A stretch of 64,000 bases of DNA. Source: a virus. This document shows positions 1 through 48,306 of this stretch, in pieces (positions within the stretch are counted from its first letter, which is position 1; every line of letters begins with the position of its first letter). A model generated the notes under the pieces. It had not been told where the DNA came from, did not search any database, and worked only from the letters and a program-made list of their open reading frames with translations. The stretch spans positions 1 through 64,000 of IMG/VR virus record IMGVR_UViG_3300031999_000009; one strand, 5' to 3'. Both the position numbers and the translations under genes were made by a program.

Positions 1-1
1 T

Positions 2-181
2 GCCGTGACCGTGCCGCGCTCGACAGCCATCGAGATTGCGCTCGATGCCGGACGCATGGAGCAGCGGCTCGCGACCAGCGGGGCCCCGGCCGAATTGATG
101 GAGAAGATTCGCGCCGCCGACTACAAGACTCTGATCAAGACCGTGCGGCCGGCGTTCAGCTACGCCAGGTATGGGATGTGA
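2..181 (+). CDS. Hypothetical protein, 3' end only
   Basis: Frame open from the window edge to TGA at 179-181 (...KTVRPAFSYARYGM*). Confidence 0.55.
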   Translation, partial: AVTVPRSTAIEIALDAGRMEQRLATSGAPAELMEKIRAADYKTLIKTVRPAFSYARYGM

Positions 182-357
182 CGCAGGGACAGCAACGCGG
201 ATTCGACGGCACGGTGGTCTACCGCTGGGTGCTGTCGTTGCCCGGCGGGTCGCACGTCTACACGTGGGCGGCGACGCGCGCGGACGCGATCGCGAAATGT
301 CTCGCGCATCGGAAAGTGACGCCGGTGACGGTTGAACCCGCACCGCCGTTGTGGTAA
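178..357 (+). CDS. Small hypothetical protein (59 aa)
   Basis: GTGA overlap with the upstream stop; MTQGQQRGFDGTVVYRWVLSLPGG...PPLW*. Confidence 0.5.
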   Translation: MTQGQQRGFDGTVVYRWVLSLPGGSHVYTWAATRADAIAKCLAHRKVTPVTVEPAPPLW

Positions 358-360
358 TGT
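352..360 (+). promoter_or_regulatory. Putative extended -10 promoter for the tRNA array
   Basis: TG-G-TAATGT ends 7 nt before tRNA-fMet; similar TGn-TAnnnT boxes at 1513, 44868 and 47980. Confidence 0.35.
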
Positions 361-367
361 TTCGTTT

Positions 368-443
368 CGCAGGGTGGAGCAGCGGCCAGCTCGCTTGGCT
401 CATAACCAAGAGGTCGGGGGTTCGAGTCCCTTCCCTGCATCCA
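368..443 (+). tRNA. tRNA-fMet (CAT), initiator type
   Basis: Cloverleaf, C1:A72 mismatch, A11:U24, anticodon loop CTCATAA, TTCGAGT T-loop, encoded CCA. Confidence 0.9.
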
Positions 444-451
444 AGATTCCA

Positions 452-514
452 ATGACGCAACACTCATCGTCTCAACGGTTACTTAGCTCGCGCCTATTGG
501 CGCTGAGTTATTGA
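452..514 (+). CDS. Putative leader/sensor peptide MTQHSSSQRLLSSRLLALSY
   Basis: 20-codon ORF whose codons match the anticodons of all eight downstream elongator tRNAs; no obvious Shine-Dalgarno. Confidence 0.55.
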   Translation: MTQHSSSQRLLSSRLLALSY

Positions 515-607
515 TCCGCGTGAGCTGGTGAGTCTCGCCGAAGCGTCAGCCTTCCTCTAGACAGACGACGTCGCAGCGCTCACTGATTCACGCGATAGCT
601 CTATCGC
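479..607 (+). promoter_or_regulatory. Attenuator-like leader with mutually exclusive stems
   Basis: Stems 481-494/499-508, 479-493/518-531, 517-532/579-594 and 592-597/602-607. Confidence 0.5.
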
Positions 608-697
608 GGAGAGTCGGCCTATCGGCTAGGGCACACAGTCTCGAAAACTGCCACCGCCTAAGAACGGCTGGGGGTTCAACTCCCTCACTCTCCGCCA
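608..697 (+). tRNA. tRNA-Ser (CGA)
   Basis: GGAGAGT/ACTCTCC acceptor stem, loop CTCGAAA, long variable arm, G73, CCA. Confidence 0.85.
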
Positions 698-699
698 AA

Positions 700-882
700 C
701 TATTCGCAGGTCGCTGGCGTGCACGGAACCATCTCGACGATCTCGTGGTCGATGATGGCGCACCGGCCGCAGACGAGCCTGCCATCGTCGAGAACGAACG
801 GCTGTGGGTGTTCGCAGTCGTAGGGACAATGGGCGTGGTCGCAGTCGTGCTGGAGGCACCACTCGGAGTAGGTCACGCTCAT
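700..882 (-). CDS. Cys/His-rich 60-aa protein, antisense within the tRNA array
   Basis: Fills the gap between two tRNAs almost exactly; CxxHxCxHxHCxxxC and CxxC motifs. Confidence 0.6.
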   Translation of the reverse strand: MSVTYSEWCLQHDCDHAHCPYDCEHPQPFVLDDGRLVCGRCAIIDHEIVEMVPCTPATCE

Positions 883-890
883 ATCGTAAC

Positions 891-968
891 CGCCGCGTGA
901 AGGGAACAGGCAGACCTCCCAAGCTCAAACCTTGGGGCTTCTCGGTTCGACTCCGAGCGCGGCGACCA
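891..968 (+). tRNA. tRNA-Leu (CAA), short variable loop
   Basis: CGCCGCG/CGCGGCG acceptor, CCAAG-CTCAAAC-CTTGG anticodon arm, A73, CCA. Confidence 0.8.
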
Positions 969-972
969 TCGT

Positions 973-1047
973 GGACCTGTGGCGAACGGCAGAGCAGGCG
1001 AGCTTAAACCTCGCCGGGTGCGGGTTCGAATCCCGCCGGGTCCACCA
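973..1047 (+). tRNA. tRNA-Leu (TAA), short variable loop
   Basis: GGACCTG/CGGGTCC acceptor, GCGAG-CTTAAAC-CTCGC, TTCGAAT, ACCA. Confidence 0.8.
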
Positions 1048-1052
1048 GACTT

Positions 1053-1136
1053 CGGCACGTGGCGGAACGGCAGACGCGCAAGCCCGAGGCGCTTGTGGAG
1101 AAATCCGTGGAGGTTCGATTCCTCTCGTGCCGACCA
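1053..1136 (+). tRNA. tRNA-Leu (GAG)
   Basis: CGGCACG/CGTGCCG acceptor, CAAGC-CCGAGGC-GCTTG (C at position 33), long variable arm, ACCA. Confidence 0.85.
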
Positions 1137-1140
1137 TCTT

Positions 1141-1224
1141 GGAGGCGTAGACCGTTATGGAGACGGGGCTGTCTGTAGAACAGTCGTTTCGGCTCGGCTG
1201 GTTCGATTCCAGCCGCCTCCACCA
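1141..1224 (+). tRNA. tRNA-Tyr (GTA)
   Basis: GGAGGCG/CGCCTCC acceptor, loop CTGTAGA, extended variable arm, ACCA. Confidence 0.85.
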
Positions 1225-1230
1225 TCTCAC

Positions 1231-1308
1231 GGGCAAGTGAAGGGAACTGGCATACCTTGTCGGCTCAGACCCGGCAGCTTGTGGGTTCGACTCCCACCTT
1301 GCCCACCA
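1231..1308 (+). tRNA. tRNA-Leu (CAG), short variable loop
   Basis: GGGCAAG/CTTGCCC acceptor, GTCGG-CTCAGAC-CCGGC, ACCA. Confidence 0.8.
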
Positions 1309-1346
1309 GTTCTGAATCAGGAACGGCGATCCTGATTCCTTGACAC

Positions 1347-1433
1347 GGAAGGCGTCCGACTGGACGAGGAAGCAGCCCGCTAAGCTGCCGGCGCTCATCA
1401 CGCTTCGGGGTTCGAGTCCCCGGCCTTCCGCCA
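1347..1433 (+). tRNA. tRNA-Ser (GCT)
   Basis: GGAAGGC/GCCTTCC acceptor, GCAGC-CCGCTAA-GCTGC (C at position 33), long variable arm, GCCA. Confidence 0.85.
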
Positions 1434-1434
1434 T

Positions 1435-1508
1435 TGGCGAGTCGTTCAACGGCAGGACGGCGCCCTTTGAAGGCGTCTATCGTGGTTCGAATCCACGCTC
1501 GCCAGCCA
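1435..1508 (+). tRNA. tRNA-Gln (TTG)
   Basis: TGGCGAG/CTCGCCA acceptor (U1:A72), loop CTTTGAA, GCCA. Confidence 0.9.
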
Positions 1509-1535
1509 ACTCTGCTAGGATGTGCAGGAAACTTT

Positions 1536-1900
1536 GGGGCCGACCCGGTTTCGACGGGTGTAAGAGAGCGATGTGTGCGTGCCGTCCTTGTCAGCCATGG
1601 ACGTAAAACGGGCGGACATCCTTCAACTGCTCAAGAAGCATTTGAACTCCCGATCGCGGCGTAACAACCGTCGTCGGGCGGTGGTCCTGCGAGGCGCCCA
1701 GTAGCAGGAACCCACTGTCATTTACCGGGCTAAGGCGTGGCGAGAATCCGGTGGTAGCCACGCACGAAAATCACGGTCGGATGGTGGAGGGCAAGTGCAA
1801 GCTGCCCCTCCCGCAGCCCAGCGGGTCATCTGGGATACGCACGTAGAGCACATCGAACGACGACATTCGGACGTGGGTTCGACTCCCACCGGCTCCACCA
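1536..1900 (+). ncRNA. ssrA: tmRNA; tag (A)AQEAFELPIAA* at 1629-1664
   Basis: 5' GGGGCCGA...GGTTTCGAC; 3' T-arm GTGGGTTCGACTCCCAC plus CGGCTCCACCA with G3:U70; tag ORF ending in AA. Confidence 0.93.
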
Positions 1901-1928
1901 CTTATGGCGATGATTCCCTCGGCGTAAC

Positions 1929-2417
1929 GTGCTTCCACTGCTCGTTTCGGCTGGCGCAACCTTCGGCGACGACGATCGTTACCGCTACAACTTGTGGCGA
2001 AACTTCGTTGTCGAGCCGAAGGACGCGTGCCTGTGGGTGATGCTGAACCCATCGACCGCGACCGCTACGGCTGATGATCCCACCGTCCGTCGGTGCCAAC
2101 AGTTCTCCCGCGCCTGGGGATTCGACGCGTGTCGCGTCGTGAACATCTTCGCGTGGCGGTCCACCGACCCGAAGGTCTTGACCCTCTTGGAAGACCCTGT
2201 GGGCCCAGAGAACGACGAATGGATTGCGCGCGAGGCGAGCTGGGCCGGCAAGATCATCTGCGCCTGGGGAGCCTACGGCCATCTCAGAGGCCGCAGCGAA
2301 CGGATTCGTCATCTCCTTGCGCCTTACGAGCCCTGGTGCTTCGGCCTCACCAAGAACATGCAGCCACTTCATCCGCTCTACCAACATTCGACCACGCCGC
2401 TGGTGCGCTGGGCGTGA
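1929..2417 (+). CDS. DUF1643 family protein
   Basis: YRYxLWR, VMLNPSTA...DDPT, VVNIFAWRSTDP, ICAWG and PLHPLY motifs. Confidence 0.85.
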   Translation: MLPLLVSAGATFGDDDRYRYNLWRNFVVEPKDACLWVMLNPSTATATADDPTVRRCQQFSRAWGFDACRVVNIFAWRSTDPKVLTLLEDPVGPENDEWIAREASWAGKIICAWGAYGHLRGRSERIRHLLAPYEPWCFGLTKNMQPLHPLYQHSTTPLVRWA

Positions 2418-2611
2418 GAACAAAAGCAGAGATCGCCGCTGCCGCGGCGCACGACGAGGCCACCCGCCCGTTGATGCGCAACTGGATCGACAGCTTGGAC
2501 GGCATTCACCGAGGGCTGGTCTTCTGCGCGATGCGCGATGCGGCCCAACAGGCCATCGACGCGTGGGAAGCCGAGCGCCAGGAGCGCGTCGCGGCGGAGT
2601 TCTTCTCGTGA
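2414..2611 (+). CDS. Hypothetical protein
   Basis: GTGA-coupled at both ends; MRTKAEIAAAAAHDE... Confidence 0.6.
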   Translation: MRTKAEIAAAAAHDEATRPLMRNWIDSLDGIHRGLVFCAMRDAAQQAIDAWEAERQERVAAEFFS

Positions 2612-3300
2612 AGTTGCCCATCACGCAGGAGAACCTGCGCGAGTGGTTCCCGTCACCGTATGTGGAGAACCCGCTAGCGGGTGACCCGTGGTGGCAATTG
2701 CAGTCGCTCGGCCTACTCTGCGCGCTTCAGTTCATGCGCCTGATCCCGGCCGGCGATCTCCAGCAGCAAGCGCTGATCGAACTGCGACGGGGCCTGGACA
2801 CGGGCCTGTTGGCGATTCCGGCGCCGTCCGACGAAGAGATCCAGCGTCGCCGCGCACAGTCGCTGGCTCCGTGGTGTCCGTCGCCCTTCCCGGTCGTGGA
2901 CGCGATGCTGAACTTGGCGGCGCTCACGCCAGACGACGTGCTGCTTGACCTGGGGAGTGGCGATGGCCGGATCGTGCTGGAAGCCGCTGCGCGCGGCGCG
3001 CGCTCCATCGGCGTGGAGATCGACGCGGCATTCGTGTCGGCGTCCATTGAGCGTGTGAGCGAAGACCCCGCCTACGCGCGGGCGTCCTTCCGCCACGAGA
3101 ACGCCCTCGAAGCCGACTTGTCAGAGGCGACCGTCATCACCTGCTACCTGGTGTCGACGTCGATGGCGGTGTTGTCCGAGAAATTCCGCACACTTCGGCC
3201 TGGAACACGTATCATTTCCCATGCGTTCGCAATGGCAAACTGGGCCCCGACTCGCGTCGTTCACGTGGACGGTGTGCCGGTTTTCCTGTGGACTGTGTGA
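2608..3300 (+). CDS. Class I SAM-dependent methyltransferase (FAM173/DOT1-like protein methyltransferase type)
   Basis: SLAPWCPSP..VVDAML, LLDLGSGDGRIV, GVEID and LRPGTRIISHAF motifs. Confidence 0.85.
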   Translation: MKLPITQENLREWFPSPYVENPLAGDPWWQLQSLGLLCALQFMRLIPAGDLQQQALIELRRGLDTGLLAIPAPSDEEIQRRRAQSLAPWCPSPFPVVDAMLNLAALTPDDVLLDLGSGDGRIVLEAAARGARSIGVEIDAAFVSASIERVSEDPAYARASFRHENALEADLSEATVITCYLVSTSMAVLSEKFRTLRPGTRIISHAFAMANWAPTRVVHVDGVPVFLWTV

Positions 3301-3326: not shown

Positions 3327-4811
3327 ATGGCCCTCGCTGACTGGCTTCCATGGGGTCGCCCGCGCGACCGCGCGAGCACCACCGACTTGATGTCGGACGG
3401 GCTGCCGAAGGGCGTTCGCACCGTTCAAGGCGTGTCGTCGCAAGAATTCGGTGCCTCGGGCACTGAAAACTTCGGCGGCTACATCCGCAAGGAAGACTTC
3501 AATCCCGAGCTCGACGATTGGCAGCGCGCGGTTGCCATCTACGACAAGATGCGGCGCACGGATGCCCAGGTCCGCGCGATGCTGCAGGTCATCAAGCTGC
3601 CGCTCCGGGGCGCGACCTGGACGTGCAATCCCGCGTCGACCGACCCGATCGACAAGAAGATCGCTGACTACTGCAACAACGCGTTGTTCGACGACGACGC
3701 GATGGAAGACTCCTGGGACTTCACTCTGCGGCATATCCTGTTGCAGCTTGACTTCGGCGTGAGCGTGCTGGAGAAGGTTTGGAAGGTCGACGAGGATGGT
3801 CATTACCGCTTCAAGCGGCTGGCACCGCGGCTTCCGAAGACCTTGCGTGAATGGCACGTGAACCGGGAAGGCAAGCTGGTGGCCATCGTTCAATATGCGC
3901 CAGTGCCGCAGAGCACCACTCGGCTCGCCAACGCGCAGTTGCGCACGCCCACCTACAATACGAGCATCAGCTACCAGTATCTGACGATCCCCGCTGAATA
4001 CGCGGCCGTCTTCTGCTTGGAGCGCGAGGGCGACAACTACGAGGGCTACAGCCTCCTGCGGAACGTCTACCGCAATTGGTGGTTCAAGGACCAGGCGTAT
4101 CACACGATGGGCGTCGGCCTCGATCGGTGGGGCGTCGGCATTCCCGTCGCAGAGCTCGAGGAAGGACACACGCTCTCGACTGGCGATCTGCAGACGTTGC
4201 GCGAAGTCCTGCAGGCCATTCGTGCGAACGAGAAGTCCTACTTGGTCGCGCCGCCGCACGTGAAGTTCAAGATTCTTCCCGAGGGCGCATCCGGCGGCAC
4301 CATCGGCCAGTTCGGCATCGGGTGGATTGACCACAACGACTCGCAGATTGCCCGCAACGTGCTGGCGAACTTCCTGACGCTTGCGAAGGATTCGCAGGGA
4401 TCGCTCAATCAGGGCAGCGGCTCGCGGTTGACGGACATGTTCGTCAGTTCGTTGAACGGCATCGCGGCCGGCATCAACGGCGACCTGAAGCAGCAAATCA
4501 TCAAGCCGCTGTGCGACCTGAACTTCGATATGTCGCGTCGGCGGTATCCCGTTCCGGTCTGCCTTGACTTGGAGCAGGTCGAGCTGCAGAACCTGATTGA
4601 GATTCTTGCGAAGCTGACGGGCACCGTCATCACGCCGCAAGACGACGACGAGACGTTGCTGCGGAAGATGCTTGGGCTGCCGAAGCTGGACCCGCACAAC
4701 AAGCGCGATCAGAATGATCCAGTCAAGGCAGAGATGACCACGGCGACCGACGCGGTCGCCCCACCGGCTCAGCAAACGCCGGCGCCTGGCGAAGTCGAGG
4801 GGAGCATATGA
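3327..4811 (+). CDS. Portal protein (DUF935, Mu gp29-like)
   Basis: YDKMRRTDAQVRAML, LDFGVSVLEKVW, YEGYSLLRNVY..WWFK, DRWGVGIP; position at the start of the head module. Confidence 0.85.
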   Translation: MALADWLPWGRPRDRASTTDLMSDGLPKGVRTVQGVSSQEFGASGTENFGGYIRKEDFNPELDDWQRAVAIYDKMRRTDAQVRAMLQVIKLPLRGATWTCNPASTDPIDKKIADYCNNALFDDDAMEDSWDFTLRHILLQLDFGVSVLEKVWKVDEDGHYRFKRLAPRLPKTLREWHVNREGKLVAIVQYAPVPQSTTRLANAQLRTPTYNTSISYQYLTIPAEYAAVFCLEREGDNYEGYSLLRNVYRNWWFKDQAYHTMGVGLDRWGVGIPVAELEEGHTLSTGDLQTLREVLQAIRANEKSYLVAPPHVKFKILPEGASGGTIGQFGIGWIDHNDSQIARNVLANFLTLAKDSQGSLNQGSGSRLTDMFVSSLNGIAAGINGDLKQQIIKPLCDLNFDMSRRRYPVPVCLDLEQVELQNLIEILAKLTGTVITPQDDDETLLRKMLGLPKLDPHNKRDQNDPVKAEMTTATDAVAPPAQQTPAPGEVEGSI

Positions 4812-6968: not shown

Positions 6969-7568
6969 ATGCGAATCGAAGGACTGCGCGCCGACGGTGC
7001 GCAACTGTTGCTGTTGGGGTCAGGGTTGGCGGTCATCATGCGCGGCGATCGCGTGTCCACGACGGTGGATGAAGACGTGGCGCGCAAGCTTGGACCGTGG
7101 GGCCCCGCGGACAACGGCCTGGAGCAGCGTCGCGCAGCCGAGCGGCAGGTTGACCGCTGCCGCGTCACCCCTATTCACCTGATGGGCGCGATGCCAGCCG
7201 CCGCGGATTCCCCGGCGTCAAAGGGTGAGCCCGCGGCCACGGCGGAGGAGCTGAAGGCCAAGGCCAGCGAGCACCAGGCGGCCGCATGGGGCGAGGACAA
7301 CGACATCGACAAGCTGAAGGAAGACGCGGACAACGAAGCCAAGGAAGCGCTGAAGCAAAGCGCGTCGGCCAAGACAGCGGCGGATCACCGCGCAGCTGCC
7401 GATGCCTTGGAAGCCGCGGCGGCCTCTCAGGCGGCGGTGGCGAAACTTCAGGAGGGCCCCGCTGCGACGCCGGCTCCTGGCACGCCAGAGTTCGATGCGT
7501 ATGTGGCGGCAGAGGTCGCGCGACGCGTGTCAGAGGCGCAGGCGACTCCCGCGCCAGTCAGCGCGTAA
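6969..7568 (+). CDS. Hypothetical protein, paralog of the 4808 N-domain
   Basis: AAGGAG RBS; shared DG..L.LG.G..V..RG and GPW motifs. Confidence 0.75.
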   Translation: MRIEGLRADGAQLLLLGSGLAVIMRGDRVSTTVDEDVARKLGPWGPADNGLEQRRAAERQVDRCRVTPIHLMGAMPAAADSPASKGEPAATAEELKAKASEHQAAAWGEDNDIDKLKEDADNEAKEALKQSASAKTAADHRAAADALEAAAASQAAVAKLQEGPAATPAPGTPEFDAYVAAEVARRVSEAQATPAPVSA

Positions 7569-48277: not shown

Positions 48278-48306
48278 TTGACTTCTGCCAGGATTGATAG
48301 TATCAT
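48278..48306 (+). promoter_or_regulatory. Early promoter copy 1
   Basis: TTGACT-17 bp-TATCAT containing the TGATAGTATCA palindrome. Confidence 0.85.

Follow-up and report, generated by a model that had tools for sequence, protein, structure and literature searches.

A candidate leader peptide matched to the tRNA genes behind it in a phage contig

There is still debate over what phage-borne transfer RNA (tRNA) genes are for and how they are controlled; codon supply and escape from tRNA-cutting defences are the explanations usually given. The question is raised by the left end of the 83,273-bp IMG/VR viral contig IMGVR_UViG_3300031999_000009 (completeness rating 68%), whose first 64 kb (64,000 nucleotides, nt) are referred to here as the window. 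A short open reading frame (ORF) at 452-514 lies ahead of eight tRNA genes for Ser, Leu, Tyr and Gln, and consists mostly of codons for these same amino acids. Does it monitor the tRNAs that it precedes? We infer that the ORF is translated and acts, ahead of tRNA genes, as a regulatory leader like those of trp, his and ilv, a reading to which we assign a probability of roughly 0.55. The leader and the helices around it would together probably let the phage sense a shortage of Ser, Leu, Tyr and Gln tRNAs.

Codon content of the leader and of its counterpart in a related phage

The leader and the tRNA genes that flank it are arranged as follows.

368 to 443, + strand: tRNA-Met(CAT), with an encoded CCA at 441-443 (ARAGORN; Rfam, 57 bits)
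452 to 514, + strand: leader ORF of 20 codons plus TGA (ATG at 452, TGA at 512-514), peptide MTQHSSSQRLLSSRLLALSY
608 to 697, + strand: tRNA-Ser(CGA), the first tRNA after the leader (Rfam RF00005 at 608-694, 35.3 bits, E = 5e-5)
891 to 1508, + strand: seven tRNA genes, Leu(CAA), Leu(TAA), Leu(GAG), Tyr(GTA), Leu(CAG), Ser(GCT) and Gln(TTG) (ARAGORN; Rfam)

tRNA-Ser(CGA) was missed by ARAGORN, which found the other seven downstream tRNAs, and was detected by Rfam alone (cut-off 29 bits); with this addition, the tRNA list agreed with the one given in an initial annotation of the DNA. The tRNA-Met(CAT) is initiator-like, in that it carries the C1/A72 mismatch expected of initiator tRNAs. A spacer of 164 nt separates it from tRNA-Ser(CGA), and within this spacer the leader ATG lies 8 nt past the CCA of tRNA-Met, while the ORF ends 93 nt before tRNA-Ser.

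Ser, Leu, Gln and Tyr account for 14 of the 19 sense codons of the leader, with five different Leu and five different Ser codons in use, TTA and CTA among them. All eight anticodons of the array are served by leader codons under ordinary wobble (8/8), and 11 of the 19 codons are cognate to some array tRNA. The initial annotation had reported the sequence of the ORF, its amino-acid bias and a cognate codon for every downstream tRNA, and each of these was reproduced. The leader codons call for the tRNAs that the array supplies, namely class II tRNAs for Ser, Leu and Tyr, together with Gln.

This bias was compared with several backgrounds. Of the 350 ORFs that begin with ATG and span 12-45 codons on either strand of the 83-kb contig, the leader ranked first (1/350) for Ser/Leu/Gln/Tyr content and was the sole ORF to serve all eight anticodons. 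In the stop-free stretches of 19 codons from all six frames (114,809 in all), 14 or more such codons were found at two loci only, the second of them antisense near 7345. Dinucleotide shuffles of 444-607 matched the 14 codons in 57 of 20,000 cases; the composition of the T/C-rich spacer alone gave 9-10 of 19 in the best shuffled stretch. The other two reading frames across the ORF displayed no enrichment, and G+C at third codon positions (GC3) was 53% in the leader as opposed to 78% in the phage genes. Contigs from four sediment runs (DNA) either matched the window exactly over the leader or differed from it by a single letter somewhere in 360-510, and they therefore provide no test of synonymous change.

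A second leader was found in the one relative with a tRNA array, IMGVR_UViG_3300050821_018259 (L007), whose portal protein is 58% identical to that of the window. Its array consists of Ser(CGA), Leu(TAA), Leu(CAA), Leu(GAG), Leu(CAG), Tyr, Gln(CTG), Gln(TTG) and Ser(GCT) genes, so that tRNA-Ser(CGA) heads the array in both phages. A promoter of the form TTGACA-17-TATAAT (12/12 consensus) at 2986-3014 precedes a leader ORF of 26 codons (ATG 3028, TAA 3108, peptide MFHRTLSSSRLSSLQQGYQRSLQLLG), which ends 86 nt before tRNA-Ser. Ser, Leu, Gln and Tyr make up 17 of its 25 codons, 9/9 anticodons are served, and the leader was the top-scoring of 27,111 stop-free stretches in the 21.5-kb L007 locus, with its enrichment matched by 29 of 20,000 shuffles. 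TTA is present in both leaders. The L007 leader contains CAG three times, and a tRNA-Gln(CTG) exists in that phage; the window has no tRNA-Gln(CTG), and its leader uses CAA twice and CAG never, even though CAA makes up 20% of the Gln codons in its genes. The initial annotation had named conservation of the ORF and covariation of its codons with the tRNA set as the check to be made in related phages, and in this one relative both were seen, with a biased leader ORF in place and CAG codons present only alongside tRNA-Gln(CTG).

The two leaders have little DNA sequence in common. Local alignment of the leader DNA was no better than that of shuffles (P=0.17), as was that of the spacers after the ORF (P=0.49), and a 9-mer is the only word that the two leader regions have in common; paired array tRNAs are 64-83% identical. 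Since the leaders are not significantly alike as DNA, the shared bias is not left over from sequence identity, and the two sequences appear to be largely independent. The stretches before the leader ATG are similar, GATTCCA in the window (445-451) and GATTTCA in L007 (3016-3022), and in each phage the leader RNA is predicted to begin there.

Alternative helices and a possible mode of action

Both leader regions fold as a long hairpin with its 5' arm in the ORF and its 3' arm beginning past the stop codon (z=-3.4 for the L007 leader fold). The parts of the window structure are listed first, and the helices predicted in the two phages after them.

462 to 478, + strand: segment 1 (codons 4-9, including UCA UCG UCU), pairing with segment 2 (duplex energy; minimum free energy (MFE) fold)
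481 to 510, + strand: apex hairpin within the ORF, GCUCGCGCC UAUU GGCGCUGAGU (MFE and centroid folds)
516 to 538, + strand: segment 2, directly 3' of the stop codon, with segment 1 or segment 3 as partner (duplex energies)
573 to 594, + strand: segment 3, forming the 'on' helix with segment 2 or the 5' arm of the final hairpin (duplex energy; constrained folds)
585 to 615, + strand: final 'off' hairpin 3:4, core 591-597/602-608 and extension 585-589/611-615 (duplex energy; constrained folds)

Window, helix 1:2, 462-478 with 516-533: -17.9 kcal/mol, P=0.009 against shuffles
Window, helix 2:3, 517-538 with 573-594: -25.9 kcal/mol, P=0.003 against shuffles
Window, helix 3:4, 591-597 with 602-608 plus 585-589 with 611-615: -18.6 kcal/mol, P<0.001 against shuffles
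L007, helix 1:2, about 3034-3057 with 3109-3130: -31.1 kcal/mol, P<0.001 against shuffles
L007, helix 2:3, about 3109-3129 with 3165-3183: -32.5 kcal/mol, P<0.001 against shuffles
L007, helix 3:4, 3173-3183 with 3191-3200: -17.0 kcal/mol, P=0.009 against shuffles

The segments in this list were picked after the folds had been viewed, which counts against the leader reading. The pairings were retested by a fixed rule, with segment 2 fixed at the first 24 nt past the stop codon, partners allowed anywhere in the ORF or downstream, and dinucleotide shuffles of the whole region as the control. For the window this gave an E12 of -23.5 (P=0.042) and an E23 of -27.0 (P=0.010), with both reached together in 1/1000 shuffles; for L007 the values were -28.8 (P=0.007) and -32.2 (0/1000), and both together in 0/1000. 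The helix evidence is energy-based and comes from two unalignable sequences, covariation needing alignable ones. The energies point to a trp-type scheme in both phages, with mutually exclusive helices 1:2, 2:3 and 3:4 predicted and a stop codon abutting segment 2. The mutually exclusive stems of the initial annotation were accordingly recovered and are stronger than those of shuffles; its final stem at the 5' end of tRNA-Ser is likewise present, although it extends over 591-608 and includes G1 of the tRNA, rather than covering 592-607.

The tRNA itself supplies part of the 3' arm of helix 3:4: in the window, G1 and nt 4-8 of tRNA-Ser take part, and in L007 its nt 1-6. When leader and tRNA were folded together with segment 2 masked, as by a ribosome at the stop codon, 3:4 formed and the acceptor stem of tRNA-Ser did not. 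With segment 1 masked, as by a ribosome on the early Ser and Leu codons, 2:3 formed and the cloverleaf appeared. The unconstrained minimum fold of the window also contains 2:3, and the 'off' state would therefore need kinetic setting, as in known attenuators.

These folds suggest how a switch might operate. Transcription would start upstream of tRNA-Met, and 3' processing of this tRNA would leave the leader RNA with its 5' end about 8 nt before the AUG. When the needed tRNAs are plentiful, the ribosome would reach the UGA (512-514) and cover segment 2, and 3:4 (585-615) would form as the 'off' state; were the leader untranslated, helix 1:2 would form and 3:4 would then form as well, again giving 'off'. 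The 'off' helix would tie up the 5' nucleotides of tRNA-Ser(CGA) and so block its folding and cutting by RNase P, and it may also stop or destabilise the transcript. Slow decoding of the Ser, Leu and Gln codons of segment 1 would instead leave a stalled ribosome hiding this segment, so that 2:3 pairs and releases segment 4, allowing the tRNA to fold and the array to be expressed. Since the products of the array would relieve the stall, the arrangement would be self-limiting, a homeostat that keeps these tRNAs in balance during infection. As for what would trigger it, destruction of host tRNAs by anti-phage nucleases has been proposed, which is pure conjecture. That the whole works as a ribosome-operated folding gate without transcription termination, in which the 'off' helix captures the 5' acceptor strand of the first tRNA, a ribosome stalled for lack of Ser-, Leu-, Gln- or Tyr-tRNA releases it, and the homeostat, which would cover class II tRNAs and Gln and be read through a near-leaderless mini-gene behind an initiator tRNA, is set off by host tRNA loss, for example to a tRNA-cutting defence, is a tentative proposal and in our judgement a rather doubtful one.

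The start of the leader RNA was considered from the available signals. In both phages the RNA is predicted to begin 6-8 nt before the leader AUG, 6-7 nt in L007, where the end would be set by the promoter start, and 8 nt in the window, where it would be set by 3' processing of tRNA-Met. An AUG so near the RNA 5' end would allow leaderless-type initiation, plausibly the way in which the ORF would have to be read. One candidate start site was recognised upstream of tRNA-Met.

332 to 360, + strand: weak promoter-like site TTGAAC-17-TAATGT, with TG before the second hexamer and a start near the tRNA-Met 5' end (sequence reading, uncertain)

This site is not one of the eight TTGACT-N17-TATCAT sites of the phage, which are described below. 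As for termination, terminator-like sites were not enriched in this phage relative to shuffles (16 versus 13.9 expected, and 11 versus 13.4), and the lack of a U-run behind the leader is therefore uninformative rather than damning. A Rho site was also considered; the spacers are just mildly C-rich (C 20 versus G 13, and C 22 versus G 14), and it was kept solely as a possible output. A pseudo-tRNA in the spacer was rejected, as no tRNA model matched 444-607 in ARAGORN or Rfam.

Further leaders and rival explanations

Three further leaders of this kind were found in a 187-kb phage unrelated to that of the window, IMGVR_UViG_3300049728_000159 (G006).

L333 998 to 1147, L334 685 to 838 and L335 about 723 to 894: leader regions of G006

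One leader, MRLLSLSSSPSLSSYYLSL..., heads a block of Tyr, five Leu and Ser tRNAs, and Leu, Ser and Tyr account for 16 of its 18 codons. A second, MRQHKQWQRNQH..., heads a block of Arg/Met/Trp/Gln/His/Asn/Lys tRNAs, and a third, ...VEFVGAVATVVAAEAAEGVD..., one of Val/Gly/Asp/Ala/Glu tRNAs. The three blocks have a promoter-like motif in common (..CCGTAGTATTATG or GTAGAGTATCATG), which is followed by the short ORF, a GC hairpin and a T-run. Each leader was matched by 0 of 5000 shuffles, and a fourth block (Pro/Phe) was not significant. As in the window and L007, a short ORF spells out the amino acids that the tRNAs following it carry. Unlike those two, which have no terminator, G006 has a GC hairpin and T-run in 3/3 leaders, with Shine-Dalgarno-like sites at 2/3, and there is no sequence similarity. 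The helix geometry differs as well, and the rule that places segment 2 in the 24 nt after the stop fails on G006.

A uniform test was applied to 67 gaps preceding tRNAs at 12 loci, in which a 15-codon stretch was scored for the amino-acid set of the downstream tRNAs against 1000 shuffles. Only 5 of the 67 gaps gave P<0.01: the window leader (0.001), the L007 leader (0.001) and the three G006 block heads. The loci had come in part from a search with a tandem tRNA-Leu pattern, which matched at least 117 loci; six of the matches listed had three or more tRNAs, and among these, leaders were found in L229/G006 only. L229, L326 and L274 were inspected by eye, and all six array loci were included in the uniform test, L229 by way of L333, which is the same stretch of G006. 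The feature is thus real and not general, and the window and L007 represent a variant of it without an ordinary terminator.

Close relatives contributed little beyond L007. Portal homologues numbered 156 at E<=0.001, the closest of them 69-78% identical, and tRNA genes were rare among them. Of the nine viral loci with the closest portals, one (L007) has tRNAs; when whole records were searched with RF00005, tRNAs were found in one of five, and one of the four records without them is rated complete at 122 kb. Nine further metagenome loci, the closest by portal, had no tRNA genes (0/9). Of 185 loci put through ARAGORN, none but those from the records of the window and L007 carried arrays, and a tRNA-Leu(GAG) pattern matched L007 alone. 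The single other relative of the L007 terminase has no tRNAs. A genome scan yielded 26 distant portal relatives at <=35% identity over the full-length match, many of them in metagenome-assembled genomes of Terriglobia, and no close prophage, while the matches in INPHARED were single tRNA-sized pieces only. A degenerate leader pattern hit 11 loci and was discarded, since ten of them lacked tRNAs and were chance matches, and the eleventh was L007's own record.

Several observations weigh against a translated leader that regulates the array. As the initial annotation had noted, an AUG placed 8 nt past the CCA of tRNA-Met(CAT) comes with neither a Shine-Dalgarno sequence nor a U-tract terminator. 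By sequence inspection the Shine-Dalgarno is missing before the L007 leader as well, and the genes behind this phage's own promoters do have GGAGG-like ribosome sites. A promoter scan of 1-2500 returned 0 sites, TTGAAC-17-TAATGT at 332-360 falling below its threshold, and a terminator scan of 444-607 found no terminator-like site, the GGAGAG of the tRNA following directly on the 591-608 hairpin; a scan of the L007 leader likewise found no ordinary terminator of hairpin plus T-run. The output step of the switch is thus a guess. The antisense gene at 700-882 splits the array named in the initial annotation and fits a one-transcript model badly. Moreover, 17 of the 18 closest portal relatives scanned are without tRNA genes, six other phage arrays gave 0 of 41 gaps at P<0.01, and L007 is a unique comparator (n=1).

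Further objections concern the codons themselves. TCA, TCT and CTA stand in the window leader without an array tRNA, as do TCA, CTA and TCT/TCC when both leaders are compared, and amino acids other than Ser, Leu, Gln and Tyr take up 5 of the 19 codons of the window leader and 8 of the 25 of the L007 leader, conserved Arg codons included. CUG and CAG are reverse complementary, so part of the Leu and Gln content of L007 could be a by-product of its hairpin. With the peptide held fixed and synonymous codons drawn from phage usage, all anticodons were covered with P=0.40 in the window and 0.31 in L007; the 8/8 coverage reached P=0.0012 only when TTA for Leu(TAA) and CAA for Gln(TTG) were both required. 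The initial annotation had proposed the comparison of coverage with a null, and its outcome is divided: 8/8 is not improbable given the peptide, whereas the amino-acid enrichment exceeds both local and genome-wide nulls in the two phages. The signal lies in the amino-acid content, and the anticodon-coverage statistic is weak by itself. The reading of the ORF as a sensor of tRNA depletion is therefore partly supported, by its codon match, its bias and the predicted helix scheme seen also in L007, but not by the 8/8 statistic or by a terminator of the usual sort.

The main rival is a switch made of RNA only, in which the spacer is a structured 5' leader, serving as a processing or folding chaperone or as a nuclease entry site, and the ORF and its bias are untranslated by-products. 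Strong helices and a conserved scheme in both phages would be expected of such an element, and the stability of the L007 fold, the missing Shine-Dalgarno and terminator, and a last helix that touches the tRNA itself all agree with it, as does the CUG/CAG complementarity, which may lift Leu and Gln jointly within a hairpin. A hairpin, however, leaves unexplained why one open ATG frame stops exactly at segment 2 in two unlike sequences, why this same frame tops Ser/Leu/Gln/Tyr richness in each sequence searched while the other frames of the window are unenriched, and why the CAG/CAA difference tracks the tRNA sets. In G006, such a bias moreover occurs together with Shine-Dalgarno-like sites and ordinary terminators. 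We therefore consider an RNA-only element unlikely, if still a serious competitor.

A chance origin, by which an accidental short ORF fell in a T/C-rich inter-tRNA spacer whose role is spacing only, would be favoured by the post hoc selection of the finding from 64 kb, by the 9-10 of 19 codons that shuffled local composition yields in its best stretch, by the unremarkable anticodon coverage and by the six phage arrays without such ORFs. It is nevertheless improbable, since L007 had been set as a test beforehand and passed at 29/20,000 although no DNA similarity was detectable by which the bias could have been carried over, since neutral spacers would not retain a matching helix scheme, and since all five of the 67 gaps with P<0.01 are array heads with leaders.

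Weakest of all is the view that the ORF encodes a small Ser/Leu-rich peptide with an independent function (a membrane peptide or inhibitor, and in L007 the C-terminal tail of a secreted protein) whose location is incidental, which we regard as most improbable: a loose SSS-R-L-SS stretch is common to both peptides and the L007 ORF shares the reading frame of a signal-peptide protein, yet the two peptides differ in length and in most of their sequence, the codon usage is unlike that of phage genes (GC3 53% versus 78%, with TTA and CTA present), and the stop codon abutting segment 2 and the helix scheme are left unexplained. The in-frame position of the L007 leader behind the signal-peptide ORF also counts against a separate leader. 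Both homologues of the upstream protein (2/2) stop before the promoter position and have no S/L/Q tail, and GC3 in L007 falls from 84% to 57-64% at the promoter; the tail therefore lies outside the upstream protein family. No further viral locus was found with this protein.

The RNA gene block and comparison with known systems

The leader belongs to a block of RNA genes at the left end of the contig, and no further tRNA is present in the remainder of the 83 kb. Two more features complete the block.

700 to 882, - strand: antisense gene inside the array, for a conserved 60-residue Cys/His-rich protein (30 homologues, 52-100% identity)
1536 to 1900, + strand: phage transfer-messenger RNA (tmRNA), at the end of the block (ARAGORN; Rfam RF00023, 144.6 bits)

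The tag peptide of the tmRNA is AQEAFELPIAA by the ARAGORN call, and a DUF1643 gene follows at 1929-2417. Other genes of the window, whose G+C is 60-67%, include a Mu-type portal gene at 3327-4811 and a methyltransferase gene. The Cys/His-rich protein, encoded between tRNA-Ser(CGA) and the Leu tRNAs, carries the motif HAHCP..C.HPQP...CGRC...MVPCTP..C and had no match in Pfam and PHROG searches. In the unrelated 137-kb phage L210, its gene (4001-4168, antisense) directly follows tRNA-Ser(CGA) and Ser(GCT) in a 25-tRNA array, in which the uniform gap test found no matched leaders. L210 alone has an array among the 30 loci with this gene, and L213 has one tRNA.

Eight copies of one promoter type were observed on the + strand, in which TTGACT and TATCAT are separated by 17 nt that end in TGATAG and an A/T-rich stretch lies upstream (TTGACT-N17-TATCAT at 48278, 49827, 53618, 54997, 61238 and 62540 of the window, and at 67959 and 82943 of the contig). 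Behind most copies come a GGAGG-like ribosome site and then a gene, and the eight are probably the early or middle promoter set of the phage. Upstream of the array in L007 (L093 1-830, - strand; L007 115-447), an ORF gave weak, below-threshold matches to TROVE and the Ro60 vWA domain. Ahead of this ORF comes a stretch resembling a tRNA, whose D-arm and T-arm motifs recall the Y-RNA-like partners of bacterial Ro proteins, and genes for tRNA-Phe, Lys(CTT) and Lys(TTT) lie nearby without leaders.

The array tRNAs are themselves unusual. Bacterial tRNA-Leu usually has a long variable arm; the Leu(CAA), Leu(TAA) and Leu(CAG) tRNAs of the window (within 891-1433) are 75-78 nt long with variable loops of 4-5 nt, and tRNA-Leu(GAG) and tRNA-Ser(GCT) have a C at position 33. 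Such shapes might aid escape from tRNA-cutting enzymes or alter charging. In nine long phage genes, TTA makes up 0.2% and CTA 0.9% of 636 Leu codons, and tRNA-Leu(TAA) (973-1047) is retained despite this scarcity of TTA. Together, the array tRNAs decode about 99% of Leu codons, all Tyr and Gln codons, and about 64% of Ser codons. The retention of tRNA-Leu(TAA) and this decoding coverage fit host tRNA replacement better than rare-codon supply, and low TTA use and odd tRNA shapes likewise argue against simple codon compensation and for replacement.

Phage tRNAs have been described as a counter to tRNA-cutting defences, including PARIS, retron effectors, anticodon nucleases and Schlafens (PMC10264068, PMC11555353, PMC13056530). 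The window resembles this theme in its near-complete decoding sets for few amino acids, its odd anticodon loops and its missing variable arms, and differs in its candidate leader, no sensing leader being described in the available portions of these three papers (PMC10264068, PMC11555353, PMC13056530). Anabaena sp. PCC 7120 carries a long array of supernumerary tRNA genes, the trn operon, whose expression is induced under impaired translation (PMC8421152). As far as the accessible parts of the two reports go, it differs from the window in being controlled at its promoter, through repeats and a repressor named TrcR (PMC10272220), and in having no leader; neither 'leader' nor 'attenuat' is used in the paper on the array (0 occurrences; PMC8421152). 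Full-text literature searches, supplementary files aside, yielded no account of leader-peptide control of tRNA genes.

An RNA leader that reads tRNA status through alternative helices is also found in T-boxes, which bind uncharged tRNA directly and need no ORF. A T-box or another Rfam family was rejected for the window, as 1-3000 matched only tRNA, tmRNA and related models at E<=1.

The nearest counterparts are the attenuators of amino-acid operons, such as trpL, hisL, leuL and pheL and the multivalent thrL and ilvL. The window agrees with these in having an ORF rich in the sensed codons, with segment 1 inside the ORF and the stop just before segment 2, in the exclusive pairings 1:2, 2:3 and 3:4, and in the joint sensing of several amino acids, as in thr and ilv. 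An upstream short ORF, an enrichment of regulatory codons and predicted exclusive helices are thus all found, and an intrinsic terminator is not; as in a codon-matched leader, the amino-acid set of the ORF follows the downstream tRNA set, with 8/8 anticodons in the window and 9/9 in L007. The window departs from amino-acid attenuators in that the genes controlled would be tRNA genes rather than those of biosynthetic enzymes, so that the sensed quantity is the product itself, in that helix 3:4 has no U-tract and overlaps the acceptor strand of the first tRNA, in the absence of a Shine-Dalgarno, and in its location in a phage.

Leader control is familiar for amino-acid operons and is not known for tRNA genes, and an output helix that captures the first tRNA is unusual. 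The folding gate, if true, would give leader-peptide control a new mode of output and be the first tRNA-supply sensor to regulate tRNA genes; the terminator-free variant, if confirmed, would add a new coupling of translation to RNA maturation, and would offer a compact, portable sensor for specific tRNA pools. Should the leader reading hold, the phage would gauge decoding capacity directly and make replacement tRNAs on demand, which would extend the attenuation principle from amino-acid supply to tRNA supply.

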